From: an uncultured Gammaproteobacteria bacterium
GTDB lineage: Bacteria; Patescibacteriota; Microgenomatia; UBA12405; JAHJSD01
Length of the DNA stretch: 64,000 nucleotides
NCBI GenBank assembly: GCA_964428655.1
Contig: CAYRYE010000001.1
Span: 73,328 to 137,327 of the forward strand
Direction of reading: 5' to 3'
The notes under the pieces were generated by a model that worked only from the letters and a program-made list of their open reading frames with translations, did no database searches and was not told where the DNA came from. The translations under genes and the position numbers were made by a program. Positions 5,124 to 51,843 of this stretch are shown here, piece by piece (position 1 is the stretch's first letter; the number at the start of each line of letters is the position of its first letter).

Positions 5124-5136
5124 AAATAAATTAGTT

Positions 5137-5397
5137 TTATTTGTCTCGTTTGCTAAAGAGGGCTTGGATAAGAGAAAGTTGGTAGGGTTGATTTCTTATC
5201 ATTCCCCTGGCTTCTTGGATAGCTCGAGGCAAGGAAACTCGGTGAGGATTCCCTAATCGTATTCTTGAAACTTGGGGGCTAAGAGGAAATCCGCGAAGTG
5301 CCCCATCTCCTCTGCTTTCTATCCATTCACCTGTTCTCTTATCAACATGGCTGGTGTTGGTTGTTGTTAATCGCCATGCTCGATGCTCTCTAGACAT
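5137..5397 (-). CDS. hypothetical small basic protein (alternative start at MSREH)
   Basis: ORF sits in a 360-bp gap between co-directional genes. It is basic and Thr/Arg-rich with no recognisable family, so it may be spurious. Confidence 0.2.
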   Translation of the reverse strand: MSREHRAWRLTTTNTSHVDKRTGEWIESRGDGALRGFPLSPQVSRIRLGNPHRVSLPRAIQEARGMIRNQPYQLSLIQALFSKRDK

Positions 5398-5482
5398 TTT
5401 TAGTAAAAAAACAAAATAATTTTCTTTGATAATTTGTTGCAAACTTCGGTGATAGACTATTTTCTATGTTATCATTATTTTA

Positions 5483-27097: not shown

Positions 27098-27172
27098 TCC
27101 CCGGTAGCTCAATGGTAGAGCGTCCGGCTGTTAACCGGCAGGTTGCTGGTTCGAGTCCAGCCCGGGGAGCCA
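27098..27172 (+). tRNA. tRNA-Asn (anticodon GUU), CCA encoded
   Basis: Acceptor TCCCCGG/CCGGGGA, D-arm GCTC-AATGGTA-GAGC, anticodon loop CTGTTAA, T-arm GCTGG-TTCGAGT-CCAGC, then G-CCA. Confidence 0.85.
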
Positions 27173-28642
27173 ATCCCTACTTACTCTAACTTTTCTCGAG
27201 TTAAGTAGTTTTTGAAAGAGTGGCGTATAGGTAACTTTCGCCACTTTTTTGTTTTTAATATCAAACCTCTCAAAGAATATAGCTAAGTAGTGTCTTTTAG
27301 CTTCAAAGCCAGCATTACAGTAGACTTCGTAAATGTTGTTGGTGAGCTTTAAGACTTCCTCTATAACGTCTACGTCAAAGCCTCTTTGGTTTTCGATAGT
27401 GGCTATCTCATTCTCCAGGTTTTGAATTTGAAAGTTAAGGTCTTGGTGTTTACGTTTGAAGGACTCTTTATCAATAGTTTTATCTAAGAGATTATCCTCC
27501 AAGATATTACGTTTATCCTCAAACTTTTTAATAGCATTGCGTACACCTTGAATTTCACTGTCTCTTGATTGTCGAGACTGTTTAACCAAGCTCTTTGCTT
27601 TGTCTAATACTGCTTGGGTAAACTCTTCTGATAACTCTATCTTCTTAAACTCTTTAGCTACTGCGTCTTCAAGCTCATCTAGAGGTATATAGTGGCTACA
27701 GCCATTTCTAGCACTACCATGATAATAAGCTTTGTTTTTAGCGTGAACACCATCACCATATAGGCGGGCGTCACATTCTTGGCAGTAGGCGAAGCCATTT
27801 AAGAGCCATTTATACTTTCTTCTTCTACAAGCATTATGGTTATGACGAGCCATTATCTTTTGACAGGTTTCAAATATTTCTGGTGTCGTTAAGGGGTCGT
27901 GTTTGCCTTTGTAAAGTTGGTCTTTATACTTCATCCACTTAATGTAGAAGGGGTTTTTAAGCATTTCATAAACTATACTTCGGTACATTTTTTTACCAGT
28001 TTTGCTTCTTAAGCCTTTGTCATTAATATGGTCAACTAACTCATCAACAGAGTAGTTGCCTGTAGAGTAAAGGCGAAATAACTCACTAACGAGGGAACTT
28101 TTTTCTTTATCCATCTTTATGACACGTTGAGGTTTGTCTTCGGAGCCGAGATTGACGTTTTTATAGCCAAGTGGAGCCCAGCCAGGCCAATCACCATTTT
28201 GGAGCTTCTTTTCTAAGCTTTTTTTCACCTTTCTACCCAACAATCGACTATAAAAAGCATTGGTCCCAGCAAGGATTGTTTCAAAAAACATCCCCTCTGG
28301 AGAATCATTTATCATTGGTTGATTAACTGCAATATATTTGGTCCCTGCTTTTTTAAGAGAATCTATGATATTAAAATGGTCTAGCTCGTTTCTAGCAATT
28401 CTATCCGTGTCAATTGTTAGAGCAACATCTATTTTTTCTTCTTGGCAATTAATAATCATATCGTCTAAAGCTTCTCGCCCAACTGTTTTTGTGCCTGATT
28501 TTCCACCGTCTTCAAATATACCCACTACTTGATAGCCATTCTTTTTGGCCCACTCGGCACATCTTTCCTTCTGAACGTCAAGAGAAAATCCGCCCACTTG
28601 TCCTGGGTCTGATACTCTAGAATAAATAACTGCTTTCTTCAT
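27131..28642 (-). CDS. large serine recombinase (phage-type integrase)
   Basis: N-terminal resolvase catalytic domain (AVIYSRVSDPGQ...DRIARN), central recombinase domain, and a Cys-rich zinc-ribbon region. The last 14 codons (LPGLDSNQQPAG) are encoded by the antisense of tRNA-Asn. Confidence 0.85.
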   Translation of the reverse strand: MKKAVIYSRVSDPGQVGGFSLDVQKERCAEWAKKNGYQVVGIFEDGGKSGTKTVGREALDDMIINCQEEKIDVALTIDTDRIARNELDHFNIIDSLKKAGTKYIAVNQPMINDSPEGMFFETILAGTNAFYSRLLGRKVKKSLEKKLQNGDWPGWAPLGYKNVNLGSEDKPQRVIKMDKEKSSLVSELFRLYSTGNYSVDELVDHINDKGLRSKTGKKMYRSIVYEMLKNPFYIKWMKYKDQLYKGKHDPLTTPEIFETCQKIMARHNHNACRRRKYKWLLNGFAYCQECDARLYGDGVHAKNKAYYHGSARNGCSHYIPLDELEDAVAKEFKKIELSEEFTQAVLDKAKSLVKQSRQSRDSEIQGVRNAIKKFEDKRNILEDNLLDKTIDKESFKRKHQDLNFQIQNLENEIATIENQRGFDVDVIEEVLKLTNNIYEVYCNAGFEAKRHYLAIFFERFDIKNKKVAKVTYTPLFQKLLNSRKVRVSRDWLPGLDSNQQPAG

Positions 28643-28896
28643 ACTTTATGACTCCTTTCTTCAAATTCACGAACACCGTTTATGATGCTATTACACATTT
28701 TGCTTTCTGGGGTTGAGTCCTCTATGGTTTGGGAGTTTGCCTTAACAATCCTTCCCCTTGATTCAATAATCTGCTTAACATGTTTCCAGGCAGGATAGAC
28801 GCCATGAACAAAACGAAAGCCAACTTCAGACAGTCTAACCTCAGCTAGTTTTTGAGCCATTAATTCTAACCAGTTGTTTGATGTTTGTTTAGTCAT
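28639..28896 (-). CDS. hypothetical protein (85 aa), translationally coupled to the integrase
   Basis: Its start overlaps the upstream gene's stop and its stop overlaps the integrase start. Confidence 0.45.
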   Translation of the reverse strand: MTKQTSNNWLELMAQKLAEVRLSEVGFRFVHGVYPAWKHVKQIIESRGRIVKANSQTIEDSTPESKMCNSIINGVREFEERSHKV

Positions 28897-29720
28897 AGGT
28901 GTGCAAGTAGTCCTTCAATTTGTTTAATATCTTTTTGCTCTTTTTTCACCTGGTGTGTGTATTTATCTATATTAATGTTGGCTTTAATAGCCGTCTCAAT
29001 CTTGTTTACTAACACGTCTGGGGGGAGAGCATCTAATTCGGTGGCAATATCGCCATACTTTTTTACAATTTTTTTTGCTCTTTTATCTGTTGATTTAGTT
29101 GGGTCTGTTGGTAGTTTGTGATTGACAATATCATCGTAAGTTAAAGCAATAACTTCTATATCAGGGTGCAAGTTAAAATGTTTTTCAAACCTATCTTGAA
29201 TATCTCTGGGTATATCTACTCCAGTGGGGTCAAAGTCTCCGAGGTATAAAATCTTGGTATTATCGTCAATTCGACTTGAAGCTTCGTAGATAGCGGATAA
29301 ACTTGGATAACCTCTGCTGATTTGTAAGTAAACATCATATCTTGCAGTTATCGGTTCCAATACGCTGGCTAAAGCATCTTTTTCGCACCACACTTCTAGA
29401 TGGAAGCCTTGGTCAATCAAAAGCCTTCTTTTGTAGGCTTTTTTAACTGTTTTGAAAAAGTCTTTGGGATTGGTCCAAGAAGAGGGTTTAATAGGGTTTC
29501 TGGTTCTATCGACTATGCGGTCGTAGGAAATGAGTCCTGACTCTCTTGCCCTAGAAATTAGCCTACCTAAGTTTTTGTATGACCTGTTGGTATTGGGGAG
29601 TAGTTGTTTGACTACAAAGCGATAATATAACTGTCTAAGTGTTAGCGGCATTGAATATTCAGCAATTATCTTATTGGCTTCGCTGATTTTTTGCAGTGAA
29701 CTTGGTATAAAATTATGCAT
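28893..29720 (-). CDS. minimal topoisomerase VI subunit A / Spo11-like protein (Mini-A-like)
   Basis: Winged-helix region with adjacent tyrosines (TLRQLYYRFV, resembling the 5Y-CAP catalytic-Tyr region) plus a Toprim domain with EKDA...GYP...LGDFDPTGVDI (the E...DxDxxG acidic triad). Only 275 aa and no B subunit nearby. Confidence 0.6.
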   Translation of the reverse strand: MHNFIPSSLQKISEANKIIAEYSMPLTLRQLYYRFVVKQLLPNTNRSYKNLGRLISRARESGLISYDRIVDRTRNPIKPSSWTNPKDFFKTVKKAYKRRLLIDQGFHLEVWCEKDALASVLEPITARYDVYLQISRGYPSLSAIYEASSRIDDNTKILYLGDFDPTGVDIPRDIQDRFEKHFNLHPDIEVIALTYDDIVNHKLPTDPTKSTDKRAKKIVKKYGDIATELDALPPDVLVNKIETAIKANINIDKYTHQVKKEQKDIKQIEGLLAHL

Positions 29721-29827: not shown

Positions 29828-30076
29828 ATGAGTGAAATAGCATATGTTCATACCATAGAAGACGTAGCGAAAATGTTTGGAGTTAATCCAGAAACAGTTA
29901 GGCGCTGGTGTCGTAGTGGGAAGCTTAAGTTTTTCAAGCTTCCAGGGAAAAAAGGTGAATATCGTATTTCTATGGAAGACATAAAAGATTTTATAGCAAG
30001 ACAGAACACTGAAGGTTTTAGTGATGATGGGGTGGCCCAGGGTTTAGGAACTCACATTTCAAAGAAGGATAGCTAA
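29828..30076 (+). CDS. helix-turn-helix DNA-binding protein, excisionase/AlpA-like
   Basis: VEDVAKMFGVNPETVRRWCRSGKLKFFKL is an MerR/Xis-type HTH. Divergent from the integrase module. Confidence 0.65.
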   Translation: MSEIAYVHTIEDVAKMFGVNPETVRRWCRSGKLKFFKLPGKKGEYRISMEDIKDFIARQNTEGFSDDGVAQGLGTHISKKDS

Positions 30077-31692: not shown

Positions 31693-31875
31693 ATGAAAAA
31701 ACTGTTGACCATACGCCAAGCGGCGGAGTTATTAAGCGTAAACATTGAAACCCTTAGACGGTGGGATAGAAAAGGTAAATTAAAGGCTGTTAGGGTTGGC
31801 AGTCGTCACGGTGTTGGTGACCGTCGTTATAAACAAGAAGACATTGAAAAATATATAAAGAAAAACAGTAAATAA
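31693..31875 (+). CDS. helix-turn-helix excisionase-family DNA-binding protein
   Basis: LTIRQAAELLSVNIETLRRWDRKGKLKAVRVG is a classic MerR-like/Xis HTH. Confidence 0.6.
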   Translation: MKKLLTIRQAAELLSVNIETLRRWDRKGKLKAVRVGSRHGVGDRRYKQEDIEKYIKKNSK

Positions 31876-31898: not shown

Positions 31899-33437
31899 AT
31901 GACAAAAAAATCTACAGCTAATCTTGGTTTTGAAAAGAAATTGTGGGCCGCCGCAGATAAACTTCGTGGCAATATGGACTCGAGCGAGTATAAACATGTT
32001 GTTTTGGGTCTGATTTTTCTTAAATACATATCCGATTCTTTTGAAGATACTTACCAATCAATTAAATCTGATAAAGACGCTTTTGATGGCGAGTGGGAAG
32101 ATAAAGACGCTTACAAGGCTAGAAACGTCTTCTGGGTGCCAGAAAAGGCACGTTGGGATTATCTCAAGCAAAACGCCAAGAAACCTGAAATAGGAAAAAT
32201 CGTAGACGATGCCATGATAGCCATTGAGAAGGATAACCCTACTCTCAAAGGTGTATTACCTAAAAGATTTGCCCGTCCAGACTTAAATAAACAGCGTTTG
32301 GGCGAGATTGTTGATATTTTTAGCTCTCTTGGTCTAGGAGACAAAGAATCCAAGGCTCAAGATATTCTAGGTAGGGTTTATGAATACTTTATTGGTAGAT
32401 TTGCCAGTGCTGAGGGCAAAGGTGGCGGTGAGTTTTACACTCCAGCTTCGGTGGTCAAACTTTTAGTGCAGATGATAGAGCCCTACAAGGGCAGAGTTTA
32501 TGACCCCTGCTGTGGTAGTGGGGGTATGTTTGTGCAAAGCGAAAAGTTTGTCGAAGAACATGGGGGCAAGACTAACGATATTGCAGTCTATGGACAGGAA
32601 AGTAACCCCACAACTTGGCGTCTCTGTAAGATGAATCTAGCCATACGAGGTATTGAGGGGAACCTTGGTTCATCTGATGCTGATAGCTTCCACAATGACC
32701 AACATAAAGACTTAAAAGCTGACTTTATTCTAGCCAATCCTCCTTTTAACGACAGCGATTGGGGTGGAGAAAGATTAAGAGATGATGTGCGCTGGAAATA
32801 TGGCACGCCTCCAACTGGTAGTGCTAACTATGCTTGGATTCAGCATTTTATCCATCATTTATCCCCTTCGGGTATTGCTGGCTTTGTAATGGCCAATGGG
32901 GCTTTGTCTTCAAACACTTCTAATGAAGGAAAGATAAGAGAAAGCTTGATAAAAGCTGGTTTAGTGGATTGCATTGTGGCTTTACCAGATAAGCTTTTTT
33001 ATACCACGGGTATCCCAGCCTCTTTATGGTTTGTATCTAGAGATAGACATAATCATAAATTCCGTGACCGCCACAATGAAATTCTTTTTATCGATGCCCG
33101 CAAGCTAGGTAAAATGATAGACCGTAGGCATAGAGAATTGACAGAAGCTCAACTCAAACAAATTTATGACACATATCACAACTGGAGAAATAAAAACGGC
33201 AAATATGAGGACGTCAAAGGATTCAATAAAGCCGCCAAGATTGAAGAAGTAGAAAAGAATGGCTTTGTATTGACTCCTGGTCGCTATGTGGGTACAGATT
33301 TTGAAATGGAGGATGACGAATTTTTCGAAGAGAAAATGAAAAGACTCACCAATGAGTTAAGTCAACAGTTCAAAGAGTCAAAGGAATTAGAAAAGAAAAT
33401 TAAAGAAAATTTAACAAAAGTTGGATTTAAGCTATGA
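31899..33437 (+). CDS. hsdM: type I restriction-modification system methyltransferase subunit HsdM
   Basis: N6-adenine MTase motif I ([12 protein letters not shown]) and motif IV (ILANPPFN). HsdM N-terminal domain is present. Confidence 0.9.
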
Positions 33438-34003
33438 AACAAAAATTAATACTTTTCCATAAGAGAATTGAAAGATTAAAGCTGAATAAGGACTTCTTTG
33501 TTAGTAGTCGTGTGAATATTAACTATGAGAAAGACAGAGGAACGTACACTTCTTTTAAGGGCCCTGATACTAAGACGGTGAAGGCATTTCTTTTAGATTT
33601 TAGGCCATTTGTATTAAATGATGAGCCGATAAATTTTGACCATATCAGTAACTTGGTTTACAAAACAAGTCCTGACAATAAAGTCAAAGAAAATACTGCC
33701 AAAGCAAAAGATGGTTGGAATAAACTACTGGAGCGTAAGAAATCATCCCCCGTTGGTGGATTAAGGCTTCAGATTGATGGGAAACAACTTTTATCTCAGG
33801 AGAACTTGGATATGTGGTTAAATGCCGACTATTTTCATCTAGATGAAAATAAACGAGATTTAATGACAAGGATTAGCAGTAACCCAATGGGTCAAATTTC
33901 TTATTTTGTTTTTGTTGATTTATTGCAACGTCTGAGTCAAATGTTGTTTTGGTTTGATAACAAAGTAATAAATCCAATTTTAGGTAAACACAAATCTAAA
34001 TAA
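33434..34003 (+). CDS. hypothetical protein nested between hsdM and hsdS
   Basis: Its start overlaps the hsdM stop (ATGA). 189 aa, no recognisable domain. Confidence 0.5.
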
Positions 34004-34007
34004 AACT

Positions 34008-34514
34008 ATGGACAATTTTTTTATAAAAATTTATACAGAGCAGATAAAAGACCAGCTTAGTGAGGCTGAACTTTGTTTTGAGAAAATTAAAAACAACTTA
34101 AAAAATAGCCCTGTTGTGTTTGGTGCAATCCATCACTTTTTGGTGCACGTCTCTAATGTAGCTAAATTGATACAACCGAAAACTAAGGAAGATAATGATT
34201 TTCGAAAATACAGAGCCATCTCACTTAAGAGAGCATACCCCAATTTGCCAACCCTTAATCCAAATGAAATCCATGTTCGAAATGATTATGAACATTACGA
34301 TGAAAGAATTGACCATTGGGTTATTAACTCTAAAAAACACAATTATGCAGATAAAAACATTGGTCCAATCACGGCAATTAAAGGTTTAGAACCAAAAGAT
34401 AATTTTAGGTGGTTTGACGATACAAAAATGACACTTTATTTCTGTGGCAGAGAATATCATCTGGACGATTTGTTTTCATACATTCAAAAAGTTAAAAAAG
34501 CAATAAATGAATAA
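34008..34514 (+). CDS. hypothetical protein, possible HEPN-like (Rx4H motif) accessory protein
   Basis: 168 aa. Contains RNDYEH (an Rx4-6H motif) in a predicted helical context. Its stop overlaps the hsdS start. Confidence 0.4.
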   Translation: MDNFFIKIYTEQIKDQLSEAELCFEKIKNNLKNSPVVFGAIHHFLVHVSNVAKLIQPKTKEDNDFRKYRAISLKRAYPNLPTLNPNEIHVRNDYEHYDERIDHWVINSKKHNYADKNIGPITAIKGLEPKDNFRWFDDTKMTLYFCGREYHLDDLFSYIQKVKKAINE

Positions 34515-35790
34515 TAAACAAGTTAATTACAAGCAGACAGAAATTGGTGAGGTTCCTAAAGACTGGCAAGTGGAACCAGTTTCCAGAGCTTCAGAAATAA
34601 TAAGTGGCGGTACTCCCAAAACATCTAAAGCTGAATACTGGGGCGGAAAAATACCCTGGTTGTCAGTTGCAGATTTCAATAATGAGCAAAGATATGTTTA
34701 TGATTCAGAAAAAACTATAACGGAAAAGGGATTAAACGGTAGTAGCACAAATATCCTTAAAAAGGAAATGTTGATTATCTCGGCGAGAGGTACAGTAGGT
34801 GTGTTGGCTCAAGTTGGCAGAGACATGGCCTTTAACCAATCCTGTTACGGCTTGAATTCAAAACAAGGTTATATTAACGATTTTCTTTACTACTCTCTTA
34901 AAAGTCGCATGGGCGCTATAAGACAAAAAACTCATGGTTCCGTTTTTTCAACTATCACGAAAAGAACTTTTGATGATATTTTTTTACCCAAACCAAAAGT
35001 TGAAGAACAACAACAAATAGCCTCAGTTCTTTCTTCTCTCGATGACAAAATTGAGCTGAATCGCAAAATGAACCAGACCCTTGAAGAAATGGGTAAAGCT
35101 CTTTTTAAGAATTGGTTTGTAGACTTTGAATTCCCTAATAATGAGGGAAAACCATATAAATCAAGCGGTGGCAAAATGGTGGAGAGTGAGCTCGGAGAGA
35201 TACCAAAAGGATGGGATGTTGCACAATTAAAAGAATTTGGAGAAATAGTTTGTGGTAAAACACCTCCAAAAAAGAAAAGTGAGTATTTTGGCGGAAATGT
35301 TCCGTTTATCAAAATACCAGATATGCACAGTCAAATGTTTATAGTTAAGACGGAAGACTCTCTAACTAAGGAAGGTATGGATTTTCAAAAACAGAAAAAT
35401 TTGCTAAAAGATTCTATCTGTGTAAGTTGTATTGCCACAGTAGGGTTAGTTTGCATCACAAGCCAGGTGTCTCAAACCAATCAACAAATTAATTCAATTG
35501 TTCCAAGTGAGAGATTTTATAGGGAATATTTGTATTTCACACTGAGTTCAATGGACAGGACTTTAAGAGATTATGCAAGCGGAGGCTCGGCAACGCTAAA
35601 TCTAAATACAGGTAGTTTTTCGAAAATATATATCCTAAAACCAAGCAAGGAGACTTTACAACTGTTTAATGAGCACAACTCAAATTTATTTGAAAAAGTT
35701 TTAATGAATGAAAAGGAAAACATAAACCTTGCTCAAGCTCGAGACTCTCTTCTACCAAGATTAATGAGTGGGAGGTTGAGAGTAAATTAA
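34507..35790 (+). CDS. hsdS: type I restriction-modification system specificity subunit HsdS
   Basis: Two target-recognition-domain halves separated by a central conserved region (LDDKIELNRKMNQTLEEMGKALFKNWFVDFEFP) and a C-terminal conserved repeat (LLPRLMSG). Confidence 0.85.
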   Translation: MNNKQVNYKQTEIGEVPKDWQVEPVSRASEIISGGTPKTSKAEYWGGKIPWLSVADFNNEQRYVYDSEKTITEKGLNGSSTNILKKEMLIISARGTVGVLAQVGRDMAFNQSCYGLNSKQGYINDFLYYSLKSRMGAIRQKTHGSVFSTITKRTFDDIFLPKPKVEEQQQIASVLSSLDDKIELNRKMNQTLEEMGKALFKNWFVDFEFPNNEGKPYKSSGGKMVESELGEIPKGWDVAQLKEFGEIVCGKTPPKKKSEYFGGNVPFIKIPDMHSQMFIVKTEDSLTKEGMDFQKQKNLLKDSICVSCIATVGLVCITSQVSQTNQQINSIVPSERFYREYLYFTLSSMDRTLRDYASGGSATLNLNTGSFSKIYILKPSKETLQLFNEHNSNLFEKVLMNEKENINLAQARDSLLPRLMSGRLRVN

Positions 35791-35792
35791 GT

Positions 35793-36932
35793 ATGAAAAA
35801 ATATCAATTAACCAGAGTATCAAGTAACGTAGCCAGAACAGATGACATTGTTATTGAGGAAAGCGGTACTTTTAGAAAAGTGTTTCGTGGAATTGTTATT
35901 AAAGACAATCCAAAAGACCCCAAGGCGACACTGAAAGGCTACATTATTGTTCAAAGAAAGGGGCCTAGGGACGAATGGAAAGACTTGTCTTCAATAAAGT
36001 TGAATGAGTTGAAAAAAGATGAAGGTATAAAATTTGAATTAAAAAGTTTAGCATTACAAAATTTATTTGAGGCATTAAATAACTTATATCGTATTTCAAA
36101 ACAAGAATTGCCCTGGTTAGAGGAGAGCTATGTTGTAGCTAAGGAAGAAGAAATTATCAGGGTTAGTGAAAAGAGGAAAAGTTTTGTAAAAAAATTGCTC
36201 AAACAGGATTATGGAAATGAAGTTTGGGAACAATTGATTGAAACTGAACCCCATCTAGCCACAAGATTAGCTCATTCAAGGATACAAACAGAGCGAGAGT
36301 CTGCTCTCGCTGAATTTGAGGCATCATTGAGCGAAGAAAAGGGTGAAGCGTACTGGCAAACATTCTTTCAAGAAAATGAATGGATTTTTGGGCTGGGTCT
36401 AAAATACCAATATCTACATTTAATTACAGCTCAACCAGATTATGGTGGTGGTAATGTTTTTGGTTCTGGTAGTCAAAGAGGCGACTATCTTATGGACACC
36501 ACGTCTGATAGCAAATTTACAGTTTTGGTAGAAATTAAGAAGCCAGAAACGCCGCTTCTCGGTAGTGATGAGTATAGAAATGGAGCATGGGAATTGGGAG
36601 AAGATTTAGTTGGTGGTGTTTCTCAAATTCAAGTGAATGCTAATAAGTGGGAGGTGGCTGGTTCAAGAACCGATGAAAACAGAGAAGCGTTAGAAGACGT
36701 GACGACATGTAGTCCAAAGGGTCTTTTAATAATTGGGCATTGTGACCAGCTTGATAGTGCCTCAAAAAAGAAAACCTTTGAATTGTATAGGCAAAATTTA
36801 GTTAATCCAGAAGTAATTACCTTTGACGAACTGCATGAAAGGGCAAAATTTATAGTTAACAACTCATCAGATGAAACTTCACCTGAGCCTGTAGAAGTTG
36901 ATATTTCAGAGGATGAAAAAATACCTTTTTAA
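35793..36932 (+). CDS. Shedu-like DUF4263 family PD-(D/E)xK nuclease (SduA-like) nested in the type I R-M operon
   Basis: C-terminal region [16 protein letters not shown]...RGDYLMDTT...[15 protein letters not shown]...VSQIQVN...LLIIGH matches the DUF4263 pattern (WQxFF..N.WIFG, D...vEiK, Q). Confidence 0.55.
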
Positions 36933-36934
36933 GT

Positions 36935-39900
36935 ATGACTAAATACACAGAAACAGACCTAGAATTAGCAACATTAGACTGGCTTGAAGAGCTTGGTTAT
37001 ACCATTGTGGGTGGTCCAGAAATTGCACCACCTCCAGATGGGGAAAGACCAGAGCGCAAAAGCTATTCTGATGTTGTTTTGGAAGACAGGCTCCGTTCTG
37101 CTATTGAGCAATTCAACCCTGGTATTCCAGAAGATGCCAAAGAAGAAGCTTTTAAGAAGGTCTTGCAGGCCACTAATACCACACCCAGCCTTGTACTTAA
37201 CAACAAAATATTTCACTCATATTTGAGGGATGGTGTGGATGTTGAGTATATGCGAGATGATGGTTCTGTTGCTGGAGATAAAGTAAAACTAGTTGACTTC
37301 AAAAATATTGATAAGAATGATTTTCTGGCAGTTAACCAGTACACAGTTATTGAAAACAACGTAAACAGACGCCCTGATGTGGTGGTATTTATAAATGGGT
37401 TGCCTGTAGTTGTTATTGAACTTAAAAACCCAGGTGACGAGAAGGCCACAGTTAAAAGTGCCTTTAACCAGATTCAGACCTACAAGCAAGATATTCCCTC
37501 ACTCTTTGTATATAACGAGCTATCAATTATTAGCGATGGCCTAGAGGCTAAAGTAGGCACCATTAGTGCTGATATTGAGTGGTTTACTCGCTGGAGAACA
37601 GTTGATGGTGAAGAATTGGCCCCCAATGCTGTACCTCAGCTAGAAGTTTTACTAAAAGGTATTTTTGATAAAACAAGACTTTTGGATTTAATAAGCAATT
37701 TTATTGTTTATGAAACCGATGGTGAGAAAACAATTAAAAAGGCCGCCGCCTATCATCAATACTTTGCAACTAATAAAGCTATTGAAAGCACCATTAAAGC
37801 AACCATGGAGGAGGGAGATAGAAGGGCTGGTGTAGTTTGGCATACTCAAGGGTCTGGCAAGAGTTTAACCATGACCTTTTATGCAGGCAAGGTGATACAA
37901 GCTCTAAACAACCCCACTCTGGTAGTTTTGACCGATAGAAATGACTTGGACAATCAGCTTTTCGGTACATTCTCCAGGTGTTCAGATTTACTTAGGCAAG
38001 CACCTAAGCAGGCTAATGATAGAGATGAGTTGCAAGAACTTTTAAGTGTTGCTTCTGGTGGTGTGGTATTTACGACAATACAGAAGTTTTTACCTGAAAA
38101 TGGACATAATACTTACCCACAACTTTCTGACAGAAAAAACATTGTTGTTGTAGCCGATGAAGCTCATAGAAGCCAATATGAATTTATCAAAGGCTTTGCT
38201 CGTCACATGCGTGATGCTCTGCCCAATGCTTCGTTTATTGGTTTTACAGGTACTCCAGTTGAATTGATGGATAGGAATACAAGAGCAGTTTTTGGTGAGT
38301 ATGTTGATGTTTATGATGTAACCAGAGCAGTTGAAGATAAGGCCACGGTGCCTATTTATTACGAAGCTAGACTAGCAAGAATAGAACTGAAAAAAGATGA
38401 GCAACCTAAGATTGACCCTGAATTTGAAGAGTTAACCGAAGGTGAAGAGGTAGAACGTAAGGAAAAACTAAAGAGTAAATGGGCCAGGCTTGAGGCTATG
38501 GTTGGCTCAGAAAAAAGAATTAGTTTGGTGGCCCGTGACTTAGTTGAGCATTTTGAGAATCGATTAACTGCAATTGAAGGAAAAGGAATGATAGTTGCCA
38601 TGAGCAGAAGGATTGCGGTGGACCTGTATAACGAGATTATTAAACTTCGACCTAACTGGCATAGTGACGATGATAAAAAGGGTGTATTGAAGGTAGTTAT
38701 GACTGGTTCAGCCTCTGACCCTTTGATTTTCCAACCACATATTAGACCCAAACACGCCTTAAATGAATTAGCTGGTAGGATGAAAGACCCAGATGATGAG
38801 ATGAAGTTAGTGATTGTTAGAGATATGTGGCTAACTGGTTTTGATGTTCCTTGTCTTCACACTATGTATATAGATAAACCAATGAAAGGTCATGGTTTGA
38901 TGCAGGCTATTGCTCGGGTAAACAGAGTTTACAAAGACAAGCAAGGTGGTTTGATAGTTGACTACATTGGCATAGCTCCCCAACTAAAAGAAGCCCTTTC
39001 TTATTACTCGGCAAGTGACAGGCAAGAAACAGCTATACCGCAAGACAAGGCAGTTTCTCTGATGCTTGAAAAATACGAAGTGGTTAAGGGCATGTATCAC
39101 GGCTTTGACTATCAAAAATACTTAACAGGTACTCCAGCAGAGCGAACCCAGACTATTTCAGGCGCTACAGACTATATATTGGGGCTTAAAGATGGCAAGA
39201 AACGCTACTTAAAGGCAGTTTCTGAGCTATCTAAGGCATTTTCTTTGGCTGTTCCTCATGATGAGGCAATTAAGATTAGAGATGAGGTTTCTTTCTTCCA
39301 GATTGTACGAAGCGGGATTGTAAAAATGGAGCCTGTAGGCGGTGGTCCAACTGATGATGACTATGATGTGGCTATCAAACAAATAGTATCTTCTGCGGTT
39401 GCTTCAGACCATGTGATTGATATTTACTCTGCCGCTGGGATAAAAGCCCCAGATATTTCTATATTTTCAGAAGAGTTTTTAGCTGAAGTTAGGAACATGA
39501 AGCACAAGAATGTGGCTTTGGAATTGTTAAAGAAACTTTTGAATGATGAGCTTAGAACCATGACTAAAAAGAACTTGGTTATGTCTCGGTCCTTTTCTGA
39601 CATGCTGGCTGAGACTATCCGTAAATACCAGAATAGAACCCTTGAAGCGGCTCAAGTGATAGCCGAACTTTTAGAACTTGCTAAAAAGATACGAGATGAA
39701 AAAGATAAGGGTAAGGATTTAGGTTTGAGTGAAGACGAAGTGGCTTTTTATGATGCTTTGGCAAATAACGAAAGCGCAGTAAAAGAGCTGGGAGACAAAA
39801 CGCTCAAAGCTATGGCAATAGAGTTGGTTGATATGCTTCGCAAGAATACCACGATTGACTGGACTATAAAGGAAAGTGTCCAGGCTAAGCTGAGAGTTTA

Positions 39901-40015
39901 CATTAAAAGATTGCTGAAGAAATATAAGTATCCGCCAGACAAGCAAGAGGGAGCTACTAAGATAGTATTAGAACAGGCAGAGTTACTAGCTAAAGATTGG
40001 ACAGGAGAAAAATAA
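36935..40015 (+). CDS. hsdR: type I restriction enzyme R subunit HsdR
   Basis: 1026 aa with SF2 helicase motifs TQGSGKS (Walker A), VADEAHRSQ (DEAH), and a C-terminal HsdR domain. Confidence 0.9.
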
Positions 40016-40393
40016 ATGACTCAACTACAAATATATCCCATCAAATGTGAATGCGGTAACTTGATAGATGTTAACCTCTATCAAAGTGTAAATGTCACGG
40101 TAGACCCATCGCTTCTTGGAAAAGTAAAGAAAAGAAAAATAAACAACTATAAGTGTGATAAGTGTGGTGCAGAAAGTGAGCTTGCATATCAATTTTTATT
40201 TGTTGATATGAAAAAAGGAATCTGGGTATGGTGTTATCCAGAAGCGGAAAGAAAAAACAAAGACAAAATTGAGGAAGAACTTCTAAAAACGCAAGCTTTG
40301 GAAAATATGTTACAGAAACTCGGACAGCCCAAGCCCACAATAGTATTTGGCTACGATGAGCTTTTAGATAAATTAGATTCAAACAAAAAATAA
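40016..40393 (+). CDS. zinc-ribbon small protein (two CxxC-type pairs)
   Basis: CECGN...CDKCG. Its start abuts the hsdR stop. Confidence 0.45.
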   Translation: MTQLQIYPIKCECGNLIDVNLYQSVNVTVDPSLLGKVKKRKINNYKCDKCGAESELAYQFLFVDMKKGIWVWCYPEAERKNKDKIEEELLKTQALENMLQKLGQPKPTIVFGYDELLDKLDSNKK

Positions 40394-41151
40394 TGTCTCA
40401 ATACTACAACGCCAAACGTTCAATAAAATATTGCTACCAGCCAGGGTCTAAACAACCTTTTAAGTTTAGTCGTTCAAAGATTGACCTATTTTTACAATGT
40501 CCAAGGTGTTTTTATATGGATAGGCGCCTGGGTGTTGCTAGACCTCCTGGATTCCCTTTTGCCTTGAATAGTGCCGTAGATAAGCTTCTAAAGCTCGAGT
40601 TTGACGCTCACAGGGTCAATGGCACCCAACATCCTCTACTTGAGAAATATGACGTGGATGCTAAACCAGTAGCTCACGAAAAACTAGATGACTGGAGACA
40701 AAACTTTGTAGGGGTTCAGTATTTGCACAAACCCACTAACTTATTAGTCTTTGGAGCAATTGATGACTTATGGATTAACTCTAAGGATGAATATATTGTG
40801 GTTGATTATAAATCTACAAGTAAAGGTGAAGCGATAACTGAACTAGATAAGGATTGGCACGAAGGCTATAAACGCCAGATGGAGATTTACCAGTGGTTGT
40901 TAAGGCAGAATGAGTACAAAGTTTCCGATACTGGTTACTTTGTTTACTGTAATGGCATTACTGACAAGAAAGCCTTTGATGCCAAGCTTGAATTTAATGT
41001 GACCTTAATCGCTTATGAGGGAAATGATAACTGGGTTGAGAAAGCTATTAAGGGCGCACACAAATGCTTAAACGGTGACTCAATCCCTGAAGCTGGTGAA
41101 GATTGTGACTATTGTGCTTATAGGGAAGCGGTAAAGGAGATTGAGTCTTAA
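40393..41151 (+). CDS. PD-(D/E)XK nuclease, Cas4/RecB-like with Fe-S cysteines (second paralog in window)
   Basis: N-terminal LQCPRCFY, nuclease core GAIDDL...EYIVVDYKS, QxxxY-like RQMEIYQ, and C-terminal HKC...EDCDYC. Confidence 0.65.
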   Translation: MSQYYNAKRSIKYCYQPGSKQPFKFSRSKIDLFLQCPRCFYMDRRLGVARPPGFPFALNSAVDKLLKLEFDAHRVNGTQHPLLEKYDVDAKPVAHEKLDDWRQNFVGVQYLHKPTNLLVFGAIDDLWINSKDEYIVVDYKSTSKGEAITELDKDWHEGYKRQMEIYQWLLRQNEYKVSDTGYFVYCNGITDKKAFDAKLEFNVTLIAYEGNDNWVEKAIKGAHKCLNGDSIPEAGEDCDYCAYREAVKEIES

Positions 41152-44226: not shown

Positions 44227-44295
44227 GCTGGATTAGTCAACACACGTTGGTTTTAACAGAGGGAAGTACTGTAGTTTGAGTGTTGTTATTTTGAA

Positions 44296-44448
44296 TTAAA
44301 GTCTTACAAACTCTCCATTACTTACTTTCACCACTGCATACTTTGGTTTAGACACTAAGACCCTGTTAAGAACCTCTAACTGGTTTTTCACTCTTGCCAA
44401 AGACTCACCAGAGAAGATGTCATAGAGAACAAATGGGGAACCTGGGAG
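44296..44448 (-). repeat. copy 1 of a 150-bp duplicated gene-3' module (encodes ...PGSPFVLYDIFSGESLARVKNQLEVLNRVLVSKPKYAVVKVSNGEFVRL)
   Basis: About 80% nt identity to 46026-46178. The tracked ORF 44296..44622 extends it upstream with unrelated sequence antisense to the HIT gene. Confidence 0.6.
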
Positions 44449-44526
44449 CTCTGTATTTTTCCTCAAGTAGTGTGGATGACCCGAATGGGATGCTCGAACC
44501 TTTGGTTGGTGTAGAATTGAGGAAAT

Positions 44527-46020: not shown

Positions 46021-46025
46021 ATCAA

Positions 46026-46178
46026 TTATAGTCGAACAAGCTCTCCATTGCTAACTTTTACCACCGCATACTTTGGTTTTGCAATTAAGACTCTATTAAG
46101 AACTTCTAACTGATTCTTTACCCTCGCTAAAGACTCTCCAGAGAAGATGTCATAGAAGACAAATGGGGAACCTGGAAA
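46026..46178 (-). pseudogene. copy 2 of the duplicated 3' module, in frame with the upstream membrane-protein ORF and separated from it by a single TAG
   Basis: Translation FPGSPFVFYDIFSGESLARVKNQLEVLNRVLIAKPKYAVVKVSNGELVRL*. Frame continuity checked codon by codon across the TAG at 46179-46181. Confidence 0.5.
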
Positions 46179-46646
46179 CTAGAGAGAGGTTGTTTTGAAT
46201 TTTTTTTCGTCTACCCAAGACAGAATGGAAAATAGAATAATTAAAATAAAGCCAGGAAGCAGGTGGTTTCTCCACCCAGGACCTAGAAGTTTCTGAACAC
46301 CAAATGTTACAGGAACCATAAAAAGTATTGCTATTACTGCAATATGATTATCTCCTTTAACATTAGATTTTTTATCAAGACTTAGGAGTTTTCCAACAAT
46401 TTTCAGAAACACAAATAGCAAAACTAAATATATTGGGAGGGCAAAAATAAAATATGAACGATAGCTGATTGCGAAAATTTCAGAAAATCTTGTTGCTAAA
46501 AAATGGTCCCACGGTTGTTCTGTGGCGAAGGCACTAAAGTCTTTTTGAAAGAAAATTACTCTAAGCCAGTTAAAAAGAATTAAAGAAACATTTATGACAT
46601 AAAGAAGAAGAAAGGGAATCTTGGCAATTTTGGAATTTATGCCCAT
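46179..46646 (-). CDS. hypothetical membrane protein (155 aa)
   Basis: 4 predicted TM helices. The C-terminus ends at a TAG that is in frame with the downstream 50-codon conserved module. Confidence 0.5.
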   Translation of the reverse strand: MGINSKIAKIPFLLLYVINVSLILFNWLRVIFFQKDFSAFATEQPWDHFLATRFSEIFAISYRSYFIFALPIYLVLLFVFLKIVGKLLSLDKKSNVKGDNHIAVIAILFMVPVTFGVQKLLGPGWRNHLLPGFILIILFSILSWVDEKKFKTTSL

Positions 46647-46789: not shown

Positions 46790-47524
46790 GTGAACAAAGT
46801 TTATCGCCAAGGACTAATAAACAAGATAGATAAAGCGATCAAAGACGCCTCGCTCGTATCACCAGAGTTGGAACATAAGTATCTAATTGGCAAGTATAAA
46901 GAGATTCTCTTAGGTCAACTGATCAACCCTTTTTTGGCCTCTCAGTATAACACCGGATCGGGAAAGATAGTCGATTTCCAAAATCATATCTCTAGCGAAG
47001 TTGATATTGTGATTTATTCGAAAGGATTAATTCCACCTCAACTATTCTCATCAGGTTTTGGTGTTTATCCTTCAGAAAGTGTTTTGTCTTGCATTGAAGT
47101 AAAGAGTAATCTAGACGGCGCCGAACTAAAAAGCGTTTTTGATAAATATAAAAAAATTAAAAATGAAATAAAATACTCAGCCGGCAAATTTGATAAACAC
47201 GACAAACCTATCAATCATCTTCTTTCAAACTTCTCTAGAGATGTTTTTGCCTTTAAATCAATAGATAATATTTTTAATAAGTACAAGGAAATAGATACTG
47301 CTTGGGATAGCGATGAACCAATAGTAAATAGTTTTTGTGTTGTTGGTCGGGGTTGGTGGGGGTTTTGTGATAAGAAGTGGAAATTTGTACCGGCAGATGA
47401 ACACCACGAAGAAGTTATTAAATTTCTTTCTACATTAATCAATACCCTACCTAAAGTAGCAAAAAGTAGAGGATGTCCTAGGATAGACCAATACTTAAAT
47501 GTTGGTGAGGCAAAGGAACTATAA
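46790..47524 (+). CDS. hypothetical protein, possible PD-(D/E)xK-like nuclease fold
   Basis: 244 aa. SSEVDIVIY...SCIEVKSN resembles a D...E-x-K arrangement. Otherwise unassigned. Confidence 0.4.
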   Translation: MNKVYRQGLINKIDKAIKDASLVSPELEHKYLIGKYKEILLGQLINPFLASQYNTGSGKIVDFQNHISSEVDIVIYSKGLIPPQLFSSGFGVYPSESVLSCIEVKSNLDGAELKSVFDKYKKIKNEIKYSAGKFDKHDKPINHLLSNFSRDVFAFKSIDNIFNKYKEIDTAWDSDEPIVNSFCVVGRGWWGFCDKKWKFVPADEHHEEVIKFLSTLINTLPKVAKSRGCPRIDQYLNVGEAKEL

Positions 47525-47588
47525 ATTGTAAAAGTTGATTATTCTCAATTATCCAGTTTCGAAGACTGTATACTGTCGGGAGCCAGCG
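47522..47588 (+). repeat. intergenic repeat motif, copy A (TAAATTGTAAA...ATCCAGTTTCGAAGACTGTATACTGTCGGGAG)
   Basis: Shares its terminal 11-mer and a roughly 33-nt 3' block (about 85% identity) with 50171-50237. Both copies start at a gene stop codon. Confidence 0.55.
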
Positions 47589-47703
47589 TACTTTTAGCAA
47601 AACTTCAGAAAATAATGAATACCACGGCCAATTAGAACATAAGATTTGAAAAGATGTTTGAAAAAGTTTAGTTTGAGAGATTATTGTTTGGTAAAATTGA
47701 GAC

Positions 47704-49155
47704 ATGAAAAGTTTCCTGAAAAAGCATTCCTTTTTAATTGCGGTATTTGCTATTTTGTTACTTAGTGCTTTTTTCAGATTTCGAAGTTACACAAAAAGAA
47801 TTGCTTTTGATTCCGATCAGGGCAGAGATGCCCTAATTTCGCGTCAAATTGTGGAAGGAAAAAGTTTTCCTCTTGTTGGATCGCCTTCTTCTGGAGGACC
47901 TTTTTCGTATGGCCCTTGGTATTACTGGATTCTATCTTTATCTTTTGTTTTCAACCAAAATTTTCTATTAGCTCCATGGCTTATTACCACAATAATCTCA
48001 ATTTTTTTTGTTCTGGTTATGATCATTGTTGGCCGTTACTTAGATGGGAAAATACTGGCTTTGGTTTCAGGTTTGTTGGCATCATTCTCTATGGCGGAAA
48101 TAAGGGTTTCTGCTCATCTGGCCAATATTTCTATGGTAAGTCTTTTTTCGGCATTATCAGTTTTAAACGTTATTTTGCTAATTAGATTTAAAAACTCTCT
48201 TTATTCTTTTTTTATTGGATTTTTTTGTTCAATGGCAATTAATATGCACTTTTCAGCACTTTTATTCGTGCCTATATTAATAGCTCCAATTTTTGCTGGT
48301 AAAAAAAGGGTTTTTGTCAATACTCTCTTTTCATTTTTCGGCTTTTTAATTCCCTTTGTGCCTTTGATTATTGTGAACGCTAATCATTCCTGGGTAATGT
48401 TAAGGAATATGGTAGATTTTTTTCTTCATGGAAAATCTAATCTTTGGGTTAGTAATCGTTGGTTAACTTATGCTTTACAATTTTGGCCTCAGCAGTGGGC
48501 AGATATTGTTGGGGGAACAAAACTAACTTCTTTTTTAATTATTTTCTTTTTGGGATTTTTTTTGTTGAAAGACATTACAAAAAAGGGGCTAAAGCAAAAA
48601 ATCGTTCCTTTTATAGTAATTTTTTTCCTTCAAGTTGTTCTTCTCAGGTATTGGACTGGTGAAAGGCAGGCAGTTTGGCTATTGTTTTTTAATCCTCTGG
48701 TAATTATTTTTACTAGTTGGGTTATTCTTAAATTAATAAAAGCAAATGTTTTTTTAGGCTTTCTTTTTATTGGCCTTCTTGTATTTAGAAGTTATGAAAA
48801 CAATCTCTATCATTGGAATTATGTCAATCAGCTTGAGAAAATATCTCTTCTAAAAGAGAATATTCTTTCCGATAAACCAGAAGGCAAAATTTCTCTCTAC
48901 GAGTGTCCCGGACATAGTGCTGGTCGGGACACAACATTACCCTTGCTTTATTTACTTGAAATTGAGGATAAAATTGACCAGAGGGGATTTCCAGTAGTTG
49001 TTAGTTCTAATGATTTTGAAGATGAGAGATTTTTAGAAAGCAAAAAGGCTTCATCAAATATTTTCATTTTTCAGGACAAGAAATTTTTACCTCAAGATTG
49101 TTATTTTATAGATCAAGAGCGCATATATAAAGAAACAATAGAAATAAATCTTTGA
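47704..49155 (+). CDS. GT39/GT83-like (ArnT/PMT-family) polytopic membrane glycosyltransferase
   Basis: About 12 TM segments with an acidic motif in the first extracytoplasmic loop (RIAFDSDQGRDAL). Confidence 0.55.
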   Translation: MKSFLKKHSFLIAVFAILLLSAFFRFRSYTKRIAFDSDQGRDALISRQIVEGKSFPLVGSPSSGGPFSYGPWYYWILSLSFVFNQNFLLAPWLITTIISIFFVLVMIIVGRYLDGKILALVSGLLASFSMAEIRVSAHLANISMVSLFSALSVLNVILLIRFKNSLYSFFIGFFCSMAINMHFSALLFVPILIAPIFAGKKRVFVNTLFSFFGFLIPFVPLIIVNANHSWVMLRNMVDFFLHGKSNLWVSNRWLTYALQFWPQQWADIVGGTKLTSFLIIFFLGFFLLKDITKKGLKQKIVPFIVIFFLQVVLLRYWTGERQAVWLLFFNPLVIIFTSWVILKLIKANVFLGFLFIGLLVFRSYENNLYHWNYVNQLEKISLLKENILSDKPEGKISLYECPGHSAGRDTTLPLLYLLEIEDKIDQRGFPVVVSSNDFEDERFLESKKASSNIFIFQDKKFLPQDCYFIDQERIYKETIEINL

Positions 49156-49781: not shown

Positions 49782-50180
49782 GTGGAGCTTCAAGTAGGGG
49801 TTAAGATTTTACTTAAGAATAATGAGGGAAAATATCTTATTGTTCACAGATTGTTAGAAAAGTATCCTGGTGCGAAAGGGTCTTGGGATATTCCCGGAGG
49901 AAGAATTAATAGGGGAGAAACTCTCTTGGCAAACCTAAAAAGAGAGGTTAGAGAAGAGACAGGACTAGCTCTTATTGAAACACCGGAAATATTTGGTGTT
50001 CAAGACATCCTAAGAGTGAAGAACAAACATATAATAAGATTGACTTATCAGGGCTTAACTAACGGAAAAGTGAATCTTAGCGAAGAGCATGATGATTATC
50101 TCTGGTTGTCTTTAGATAAGTTAAAATTTTTTCCAGACCTTGATGTTTATTTAAAAAATCTTCTAATTAGTAAATTGTAA
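49782..50180 (+). CDS. Nudix hydrolase
   Basis: Canonical Nudix box GGRINRGETLLANLKREVREETGL. Confidence 0.75.
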   Translation: MELQVGVKILLKNNEGKYLIVHRLLEKYPGAKGSWDIPGGRINRGETLLANLKREVREETGLALIETPEIFGVQDILRVKNKHIIRLTYQGLTNGKVNLSEEHDDYLWLSLDKLKFFPDLDVYLKNLLISKL

Positions 50181-51199: not shown

Positions 51200-51843
51200 G
51201 TTTACGCTTGCTATAATGAAAAACCGCCCTCGTGAAAACGCCTCGTTTGGGTGTTCTCTTCAAGGACGGTTTTACCGTGATACCACCTCGATTTCCTCAA
51301 ATGTCACCACTTGAGGCTCACAGAGTGCTTTGCTTCTAGACCTAAACAACACACTCTTGCTCTATTACGGGAGCCCCCGTTCCAGCTTACTGCAAATGCT
51401 CTTCAGCTGGACAGCTCAAGAGGGGTAATTCGATTAGTTTATTCGTCAAGCTTGCAACAACCGCTTGATCTCTAAATGTCACTAAACCTTTCTACTTAGC
51501 CTTCTGTCAATGCTTTTGATTATTTTCGTATTCATTCTACACTAACTAAGTTCCTTGTCAAGGAACTTGCAACTGGGGCTTTATGATTTGGGCAGGGAGG
51601 ATTGGGTTTATAGGGATGGTTTGGTTTCCCATGATTCAGAAGCAGGTTTGCTAGACTATCTGGCGAGATGGCTCGTTGTCTAAGGCAAGGCAGTGTTCTA
51701 TTGCCTTCCGAGCAAACATCCTATAGTTTGACAATGATGATTAGACGTGTTATTATTCTTTTTGTTAGCTTTAAATATTGATCAGTAGTTAATACTGATT
51801 TGAGTCGGTTTATTTGGTTTAGGTATTCGTATCTTCTCCTTTT

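Follow-up and report, generated by a model that had tools for sequence, protein, structure and literature searches.

What kind of system is encoded where extra genes lie between the subunit genes of a type I restriction-modification (R-M) system, and how do those genes relate to the system that carries them? The question is raised by a locus at positions 31899-41151 of a 64,000-nucleotide (nt) stretch of contig CAYRYE010000001.1, the whole of which is called the window below. The locus is a complete type I R-M operon with nested defense genes. We consider it likely that it consists of a conserved backbone with three fixed insertion points, lying between hsdM and hsdS (slot 1), between hsdS and hsdR (slot 2), and between the genes for a CpXC zinc protein and a Cas4-like nuclease (slot 3), and that unrelated defense genes are swapped into and out of these points whole. 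In the window, slot 1 holds a gene for a 189-amino-acid (aa) protein, unk189, followed by one for a 168-aa protein, unk168; slot 2 holds a Shedu nuclease of the Escherichia coli type, and slot 3 is empty. The genes are listed here in order; domain calls come from Pfam, PADLOC and NCBIfam profile searches, with PHROGs and PDB sequences added for the unknown proteins.

31693-31875, + strand: HTH_17/MerR-like DNA-binding protein, 60 aa (Pfam HTH_17 2.4e-12, MerR 8.3e-09).
31899-33437, + strand: hsdM, methyltransferase subunit, 512 aa (N6_Mtase, PF02384, 2.2e-110; HsdM_N, PF12161, 9.3e-30; PADLOC MTase_I 1.2e-231).
33434-34003, + strand: unk189, 189 aa, unannotated rare family, window-specific cargo of slot 1 (no profile match).
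34008-34514, + strand: unk168, 168 aa, HEPN-like candidate RNase (motif R91-N-D-Y-E-H96-x-D-E-R100; no profile match).
34507-35790, + strand: hsdS, specificity subunit with two target-recognition domains, 427 aa (Methylase_S, PF01420, 4.2e-51 in two stretches; PADLOC Specificity_I 5.1e-136).
35793-36932, + strand: SduA, Shedu nuclease, 379 aa (SduA_C 5.8e-27; SduA_N 1.7e-19; PADLOC SduA 2.9e-73 over residues 3-362).
36935-40015, + strand: hsdR, restriction/translocase subunit, 1026 aa (HSDR_N 3.4e-52; SWI2_SNF2 6.9e-82; T1RH-like_C 4.3e-132).
40016-40393, + strand: CpXC four-cysteine zinc protein, 125 aa (PF14353 9.8e-20, 71.2 bits against a cut-off of 25.4).
40393-41151, + strand: Cas4/RecB-like PD-(D/E)xK nuclease, 252 aa, the last gene (PDDEXK_1 1.3e-16, 61.7 bits against 22; PADLOC Cas4 4.7e-11).

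An initial annotation of this DNA had described a tightly packed type I R-M cluster of eight genes with nested genes, and the open reading frames (ORFs), junctions and domain profiles agree with it. All eight co-directional ORFs of 31899-41151 are real and have the coordinates then assigned to them; overlooked was a ninth, the helix-turn-helix (HTH) gene at 31693-31875, which ends 23 nt before hsdM. Adjacent ORFs of the eight overlap or are separated by at most 4 nt. Read from the sequence, hsdM and unk189 overlap by 4 nt (ATGA), the stop of unk168 lies over the start of hsdS in an 8-nt overlap, gaps of 2 nt separate hsdS from SduA and SduA from hsdR, hsdR and CpXC abut, and CpXC overlaps the Cas4-like gene by 1 nt; the junctions listed earlier hold, and the one left out is a 4-nt gap between unk189 and unk168. 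Terminator-like hairpins within the cluster number 10, against 7.0 +/- 2.5 in shuffled sequence, and are not enriched. The predicted proteins comprise every subunit by which a type I system is recognized, namely HsdM, HsdS with two target-recognition domains and a full-length HsdR, the last of which also matches T1R_D3-like and TIGR00348 (3.7e-195, 650 bits against a cut-off of 285) and scores 1159.8 with PADLOC REase_I over residues 2-1021, i.e., its full length. The HTH protein has a homologue, 57% identical, at the equivalent position in a related locus (L060, see below) and is probably the transcriptional controller of the cluster, by analogy with RptR (PMC12255303).

The argument for a backbone with exchangeable cargo is drawn from comparison with other metagenomic loci, labeled L0xx. 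The chassis has the order HTH-hsdM-[slot 1]-hsdS-[slot 2]-hsdR-CpXC-[slot 3]-Cas4-like. In L060 this appears as HTH_17, hsdM, a 267-aa unknown protein, hsdS, an AAA_15/AAA_21 ATPase, hsdR, CpXC, an 831-aa GmrSD_N protein and PDDEXK_1, and in L061/62 as hsdM, DUF4145, hsdS, DUF3644, hsdR, CpXC, an 828-aa GmrSD_N protein and PDDEXK_1. Protein identity between the window and L060/L061 amounts to 86-87% for HsdM, 85-88% for HsdR, 78-81% for CpXC and 60-61% for the Cas4-like nuclease. HsdS is 33% identical, a low value because its recognition domains are variable, and its alignment at the DNA level is confined to the central conserved region at 35002-35219. The chassis lineage is found mainly in groundwater or candidate-phyla-type metagenomes.

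Around this backbone the slots differ. Slot 1 contains RhuM, a 97-aa protein and unk168 in L006-8 (where slot 2 contains pP_pnuc_1 and a 141-aa protein), DUF4145 and unk168 in L009 (which has a 276-aa unknown protein later on), RhuM, two small ORFs and unk168 in L010, an AbiTii-like protein and unk168 in L021, and KilA-N, a 111-aa protein and unk189 in L065; L066 has the order unk189, hsdS, UvrD, hsdR. Across L006-L010, L021, L060-L062, L065 and L066, slot contents are wholly different. Blocks of nucleotide homology end at gene boundaries: the hsdM block reaches exactly as far as the end of the gene (stop codon, 33437), one contiguous block at 34002-34566 covers unk168 and the first 60 nt of hsdS, and an unbroken block at 36934-40392 covers hsdR and CpXC. 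Since the blocks break around both of them, unk189 (33438-34001) and SduA (35791-36933) are cargo specific to the window relative to its sisters.

Further genes were noted at the margins of the sister chassis. The GmrSD_N (DUF262) gene of slot 3 lies at 10376-12871 in L060 and at 8180-10666 in L061, and the gene after the Cas4-like nuclease in L061 encodes a Trypsin_2 protease. Upstream of hsdM stand a DUF8426/NucS-like protein in L006-8 (L006 1279-2184) and RadC in L010 (167-838); the chassis may have a fourth site of variation at its 5′ end.

The cargo of slot 2 is the best characterized. The initial annotation had placed a Shedu SduA/DUF4263 nuclease there and proposed a profile search for DUF4263, and both Pfam and PADLOC confirm a full-length SduA: SduA_C/DUF4263 (PF14082) scores 95.3 bits and SduA_N (PF21407), the N-terminal sensor domain of E. 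coli-type SduA, 70.3 bits, each against a cut-off of 27. The PD-(D/E)xK motifs are present as E194/E196, D231, E247-x-K249 and Q278/Q280, matched to the published list for Bacillus cereus Shedu by order and spacing, not by alignment. Shedu genes have been reported within R-M systems, type I included, in 602 of 5,499 cases (Gu et al. 2023, 10.1101/2023.08.10.552793), and the N-terminal clamp of SduA senses free DNA ends and directs nicking nearby (Loeff et al. 2023, 10.1101/2023.08.10.552762). Like the cases of Gu et al., the gene in the window is a single-gene SduA_N + SduA_C protein with all PD-(D/E)xK motifs inside an R-M operon; there is no essential difference, the exact position between hsdS and hsdR and the candidate-phyla-type host being details, and this part of the operon is an ordinary, already known arrangement.

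The tail of the operon had been described as a double-CxxC zinc ribbon and an iron-sulfur (Fe-S) type Cas4/RecB-like nuclease, taken together as an accessory pair. For the first protein, the CpXC family is confirmed, and its cysteines form one C-x-C and one CxxC (C11-x-C13 and C47-xx-C50) rather than two CxxC pairs; all four are invariant in 14 homologues, and the close clade consists of 14 clusters. The second protein is likewise borne out, with PDDEXK_1, as well as CpXC, above cut-off in the profile searches proposed for them, and with conserved cysteines. Its nuclease motifs are D124/D125, D138-x-K140 and Q162xxxY166, and the latter two, together with C36, C39, C225, C238 and C241, are invariant in three homologues; by motifs and cysteines it is a RecB-family Fe-S nuclease with predicted cluster binding. 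With the Cas4/AddB Fe-S nucleases it shares the PD-(D/E)xK core, D-x-K, QxxxY and conserved N- and C-terminal cysteines. The canonical cysteine spacing of Cas4 is CxxCx5C, from which that of the window protein differs, and its scores fall below the family cut-offs (Cas_Cas4, PF01930, 18.4 against 22.7 bits; TIGR00372, 36.2 against 65). No cas genes and no CRISPR array or repeats were found in the window, and the gene is flanked by hsdR/CpXC on one side and a DsbD-like gene on the other. On its sub-cut-off scores and the lack of any cas or CRISPR association, it is not Cas4 proper.

The two proteins are not a free-standing accessory pair. In relatives a GmrSD-type gene stands between them, and they are kept with the hsdR lineage: CpXC follows hsdR at a junction of 0-1 nt, and the same nuclease then follows, with or without GmrSD, in three independent lineages (the window, L060 and L061/62). 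CpXC and the Cas4-like nuclease are thus lineage-conserved companions of hsdR rather than loose add-ons. This placement bears on an alternative that we find doubtful, namely that CpXC, GmrSD and the nuclease make up a separate defense module parked 3′ of hsdR, of which the window version has lost GmrSD and which does no work with HsdR. The 828-831-aa GmrSD_N protein between CpXC and the nuclease in L060 and L061/62 speaks for such a module, as does the lower conservation of the Cas4-like protein (60-61%) relative to hsdR and CpXC; GmrSD-like genes, moreover, have been described as genes nested in type I and Hma systems (TgvAB and Payne et al. 2024, both cited in full below). Against it, homology runs without a break through hsdR and CpXC, the tight junction of which is kept in all three lineages, and CpXC and the nuclease persist where GmrSD is absent, closed up in the window to a clean 1-nt overlap. 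Other CpXC homologues also lie beside helicases or nucleases, which suggests a helicase-associated role: a distant one in L063 adjoins a DUF4011 helicase and ExoVII, and one in L067, a WWE3 metagenome-assembled genome (MAG), adjoins a Pif1-like helicase and DUF2130, while the neighbors of a third, in L068, are unannotated or unrelated. CpXC may on these grounds be a small zinc-binding companion of DNA translocases. That CpXC and the Cas4-like exonuclease would work with HsdR on the DNA ends left by restriction is a possibility to which we give somewhat less than an even chance.

Turning to slot 1, unk168 had no match in Pfam, PADLOC, NCBIfam, PHROGs or PDB sequences. Its close family consists of 19 clusters, and when its profile was run with HMMER against the full set of 1.84 billion representatives, a superfamily of 1164 relatives emerged at E ≤ 1e-3. 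In 106 divergent members of this superfamily (mean column identity 12%), R91, E95, H96, D98, R100, W104, R134 and F145 are at least 90% conserved; the motif consensus is RNHxEHFDERLDxW, within which RNxxEHxDER is near-invariant. The signature of HEPN proteins is Rx4-6H with a polar residue (N, D or H) after the arginine (PMC3710099), and the R91-NDYE-H96 motif of unk168 agrees with this definition. An AlphaFold model (mean confidence, pLDDT, 78.6) shows a helical bundle and, beyond a loop of low confidence, a sheet of three strands and a final helix, with the motif just after the third helix, and in a Foldseek search of this model against PDB the top ranks are mostly HEPN toxins (2hsb, 5yep, 7bxo, 6m6u, 7ae6, 3jrt), but at E values of at least 0.9.

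The Rx4H motif for which the 168-aa protein had been called HEPN-like is therefore real, with R91 and H96 at least 90% conserved, whereas the HEPN assignment fails every profile search, including the one proposed for HEPN/DUF4145, which gave no match. A diverged DUF4145 was ruled out at the profile level (hhalign probability of the superfamily against DUF4145, 0.15%). The second acidic residue of HEPN proteins (Ex3[KR] in helix 2) was sought as well, and no acidic residue is conserved in helix 2 of unk168 (34-55); the conserved acidic residues, E95 and D98, adjoin the motif. Because the profiles are null, the Foldseek E values are at least 0.9 and the helix-2 acidic residue is not conserved, unk168 is not assigned to the HEPN superfamily, the case for which is motif-based with sub-threshold fold ranks and not proven; we describe it as a HEPN-like RNase, a description slightly better than even in our estimate.

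The position of unk168 is more telling. It lies directly 5′ of hsdS in 7 of about 15 informative independent loci (the window, the L006 group, L009, L010, L013, L019 and L021), and two more loci (L012, L016) have hsdM just upstream and then reach the contig end. Of the seven resolved type I loci, six have an overlap of 4-20 nt between unk168 and hsdS, and L009 has a short gap. Relative to the window, hsdM is 27-28% identical in L019 and L021 and 53% in L009, and unk168 is still 52-60% identical there. A conserved antitoxin-like partner upstream was ruled out, the upstream gene differing in every lineage, and hsdS is for that reason its sole constant partner. In viral contigs, a single distant match to unk168 was the only one found. 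Outside type I operons, in 6 of the roughly 15 loci, it occurs near type III R-M (L005), beside an Mrr nuclease (L015) and in L020, L023, L024 and L025. The homologue in L015 has two neighbors of separate note: a gene at 3706-5403 (−) whose product fuses a LexA DNA-binding domain and an S24 peptidase to an N6_N4 DNA methylase, and a gene at 8559-9119 (+) for a membrane-anchored Mrr_cat nuclease.

So constant a neighbor invites the idea that HsdS guards unk168. By analogy with known anticodon nucleases, unk168 (and perhaps unk189) would be held inactive by HsdM2S and let loose as a toxic RNase once an anti-restriction protein from a phage puts the R-M enzyme out of action, a model that we regard as unlikely. 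It draws on the constancy of hsdS as neighbor and on the stop/start overlap, which suggests coupled translation and matched amounts and which spans type I families of 27-53% hsdM identity; its precedent is PrrC, a HEPN-type anticodon nuclease kept in check by EcoprrI (PMC3710099). With PrrC and RloC, unk168 has in common that it is a candidate Rx4-6H RNase encoded within a type I operon, where it could respond to a failure of restriction. Those proteins, however, have a large ABC-ATPase regulatory domain and sit between hsdS and hsdR, whereas unk168 is a bare 168-aa domain 5′ of hsdS with no Pfam domain, and no similarity to PrrC/RloC was detected in profile searches. In addition, about 6 of the 15 close homologues with informative flanks are not part of a type I operon, so that unk168 can exist without HsdS. 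A bolder proposal, which we hold to be about as unlikely, is that unk168 represents a new minimal HEPN-type RNase family tied to HsdS by translation and serving as an alarm for unrelated type I families, with CpXC and the Cas4-like nuclease as HsdR subunits that would degrade cut DNA in a RecBCD-like job. If it were true, the locus would encode a type I enzyme enlarged by a clean-up nuclease and a suicide back-up of its own, and would be more than an R-M operon that carries passengers.

The other gene of slot 1, unk189, likewise had no match in Pfam, PADLOC, NCBIfam, PHROGs or PDB sequences. Its family numbers about 20 clusters, and no relatives were found in species-representative genomes or viral contigs. 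It stands directly 5′ of hsdS also in L065 and L066; in L004 it has an HTH_17 gene before it and an N6_N4 DNA methylase after it, and in a Shapirobacteria MAG it occurs alone. Inspection by eye did not bear out a PD-(D/E)xK or HNH nuclease, since the residues in question belong to a helix and the hairpin lacks a conserved histidine. Its position argues for an R-M-linked role in defense or control.

The initial annotation had treated the 189- and 168-aa proteins as a pair or module and asked whether their homologues are placed at random. The latter is answered in its favor, as the R-M association holds for each, and the pair itself dissolves: diverged paralogy was ruled out, the family profiles being unrelated (hhalign probability 0.6%), the two occur together in the window and in no other locus compared, and each is found apart from the other 5′ of hsdS, also where the hsdM or hsdR of the type I system is as little as 27-29% identical. 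Both, along with CpXC, were also compared with PADLOC including its HEC/PDC candidate models, with no match at E ≤ 0.1.

Recurrence at a fixed site directly 5′ of hsdS, with overlapping codons, could instead mark unk189 and unk168 as R-M control or assembly factors acting on HsdS level, timing or the alleviation of restriction after transfer, which we judge improbable. The location of unk189 in L004 between an HTH_17 gene and a DNA methylase, typical for regulated R-M genes, and the absence of any PADLOC match for either protein fit such factors. The close chassis in L060 and L061/62 nevertheless lack both proteins, which are thus dispensable for the R-M lineage; the slot elsewhere holds domains of known defense or toxin type (DUF4145, RhuM, AbiTii-like, KilA-N), and the catalytic-looking R..EH.DER motif, near-invariant in about 1,100 representatives, suits an enzyme better than a chaperone. 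It is highly implausible that the nested ORFs are spurious or pseudogenes in a dead R-M system, or chance neighbors, given that all three Hsd subunits match at full length with high scores, each nested ORF has full-length homologues of 49-94% identity in other metagenomes, the structure models of unk168 and unk189 reach pLDDT values of about 79, and the architecture recurs in other loci.

We therefore return to a conserved backbone carrying interchangeable cargo as the preferred reading, under which the operon might work as follows. The cargo genes would be expressed together with the R-M genes from an HTH-controlled promoter, by analogy with RptR, and each would act alone as an added layer of defense. 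HsdMSR would cut unmethylated DNA, and SduA would nick linear or broken invader DNA at free ends, those made by restriction among them, so that the two may act in synergy. As an abortive-infection back-up, unk168 would target RNA as a metal-independent HEPN-type RNase through R91 and H96, a role we rate at a little above even odds.

Several results weigh against this reading in one part or another. A sigma-70 consensus scan of the + strand gave no good match upstream of the HTH gene or hsdM, and a terminator scan 3′ of 41151 found none. Because these scans gave no usable limits for the operon, it is from gene spacing that we predict that the nine-gene cluster is probably one transcription unit. 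For unk168 as an RNase, the 106 divergent relatives had no match in Pfam, NCBIfam, PADLOC or PHROGs, HEPN models included; the structure model has low confidence around the motif (residues 97-126), and the model of the unrelated unk189 matches the same HEPN toxins at similar Z. For cargo specialized in defense, the neighborhoods of the wider unk168 superfamily are mostly housekeeping, apart from a few genes for Mrr, methylases, ResIII and IS1595 transposases; a defense association of the wider superfamily is not supported, a handful of 118 neighboring ORFs being R-M-like or transposases, and type I embedding is a property of the close unk168 clade, not of the whole superfamily. For the tail, the distant CpXC homologues (49-58% identity) are not next to hsdR. 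The neighborhood counts are small throughout: unk168 has about 15 informative loci, unk189 has 5 and CpXC has 6.

How much of this is new can be judged against described systems. PrrC, and also RloF of Campylobacter jejuni, are defense genes embedded in type I R-M systems. A guilt-by-embedding survey covers defense genes nested in multi-gene systems, type I R-M included, with GmrSD-like and DUF3644 cargo (Payne, Hughes, Fineran & Jackson 2024, 10.1101/2024.01.29.577857). The systems it describes share with our loci the co-oriented extra genes between type I genes, a good number of them established or candidate defense genes, DUF3644/HEC-08 recurring in L061 and GmrSD-like genes in L060 and L061, whereas for unk189, unk168 and CpXC there is no match among those candidate models of the survey that are contained in PADLOC v2. 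Its supplementary files make no mention of CpXC, PF14353, Shedu, DUF4263 or PDDEXK_1, and a three-slot chassis with a conserved tail after hsdR does not appear in those of its passages that a term search found. A literature search for CpXC with restriction returned only unrelated uses of the term.

Other comparisons concern single parts of the operon. The HEPN proteins DUF4145 and DUF3644 (HEC-08) occupy the same slots in sisters (DUF4145 slot 1 in L009 and L061, DUF3644 slot 2 in L061) and, like unk168, are small and helical with an R...H motif, yet no member of the unk168 superfamily matches either Pfam model. DUF4145 and unk168 are not substitutes for each other, because they stand side by side in L009. 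TgvAB, a GmrSD-type type IV restriction system, is embedded in the type I cluster of VPI-2 in Vibrio cholerae (PMC11411939); L060 and L061 likewise have a modification-dependent GmrSD_N gene in a type I cluster, whereas the window has none, and the GmrSD slot of these relatives is located 3′ of hsdR, where CpXC and the Cas4-like nuclease flank it instead of two hsd genes. In an enteropathogenic E. coli island, an RptR-controlled type I R-M system occurs with DarTG2 (PMC12255303), and there too a small DNA-binding protein is the first ORF and cargo lies between hsdS and hsdR. The regulator of the window, in contrast, is a 60-aa HTH_17/MerR-type protein, and a term search of that paper found neither HTH_17 nor MerR nor excisionase.

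Nesting of defense genes in type I R-M systems, Shedu included, is thus already published (10.1101/2024.01.29.577857; 10.1101/2023.08.10.552793), and the locus is not a new kind of system. The undescribed accessory modules that had been proposed for it hold up as cargo families in unk168 and unk189; the nesting as such does not qualify. What appear to be undescribed are these two families, their fixed position 5′ of hsdS, and the tail of hsdR, CpXC, slot and nuclease.

Nesting within known defense operons is now used to discover immune genes, and this locus and its relatives add two families that are unnamed in current libraries. That unk168 and unk189 are pinned to one exact site in very different type I systems is stronger evidence than proximity to a defense island. 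The sister loci amount to a natural experiment, one backbone with varied cargo, which could be used for the study of cassette exchange and of whether nested genes act with or beside their host system. The tail formed by hsdR, CpXC and the Cas4-like gene raises the question of whether some type I enzymes have their own end-processing nuclease, which may matter in small-genome bacteria.

The wider surroundings of the operon begin on the left with two features.

27098-27172, + strand: tRNA-Asn (ARAGORN, Rfam), 4.7 kb from the operon.
27131-28642, − strand: large serine recombinase, 503 aa (Resolvase + Recombinase + Zn_ribbon_recom), the 3′ end of which overlaps tRNA-Asn by 42 nt.

These two may possibly be the left edge of an integrated island carrying the operon; no att-type direct repeats of the tRNA-Asn 3′ end that would mark the boundaries of an island were found in 26900-50000. 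Between the recombinase and the operon lie two further HTH genes and a Toprim/JetD-like gene. The composite defense island that had been proposed gains from the flanks, which hold further defense-like genes, and together with the recombinase and the tRNA these genes support a mobile defense-island setting.

Some neighboring genes are recorded in their own right. At 28893-29720 (−), between the recombinase and the HTH_17 gene at 29828-30076, a 275-aa protein has weak Toprim/DUF2399 (Pfam 0.003) and PADLOC JetD (1.5e-05) matches. At 46790-49155 (+), 5.6 kb downstream, a 244-aa DUF6602 protein (PADLOC PD_DExK 2.4e-28, NucC-type effector models 7e-15) precedes a 483-aa protein that neither Pfam nor PADLOC matches, and the two genes may be a separate two-gene defense module. 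A 132-aa ORF at 49782-50180 (+) matches the PADLOC phage-defense candidate PDC-S07 (1.7e-12). A 157-nt direct repeat of 83% identity, at 44294-44450 and 46024-46180, encloses a HIT-like ORF and a 321-aa ORF that has no Pfam or PADLOC match, and the 311-aa ORF at 50264-51199 has a T-box leader upstream of it at 51259-51519 (−), with 111 bits where the gathering score is 93.

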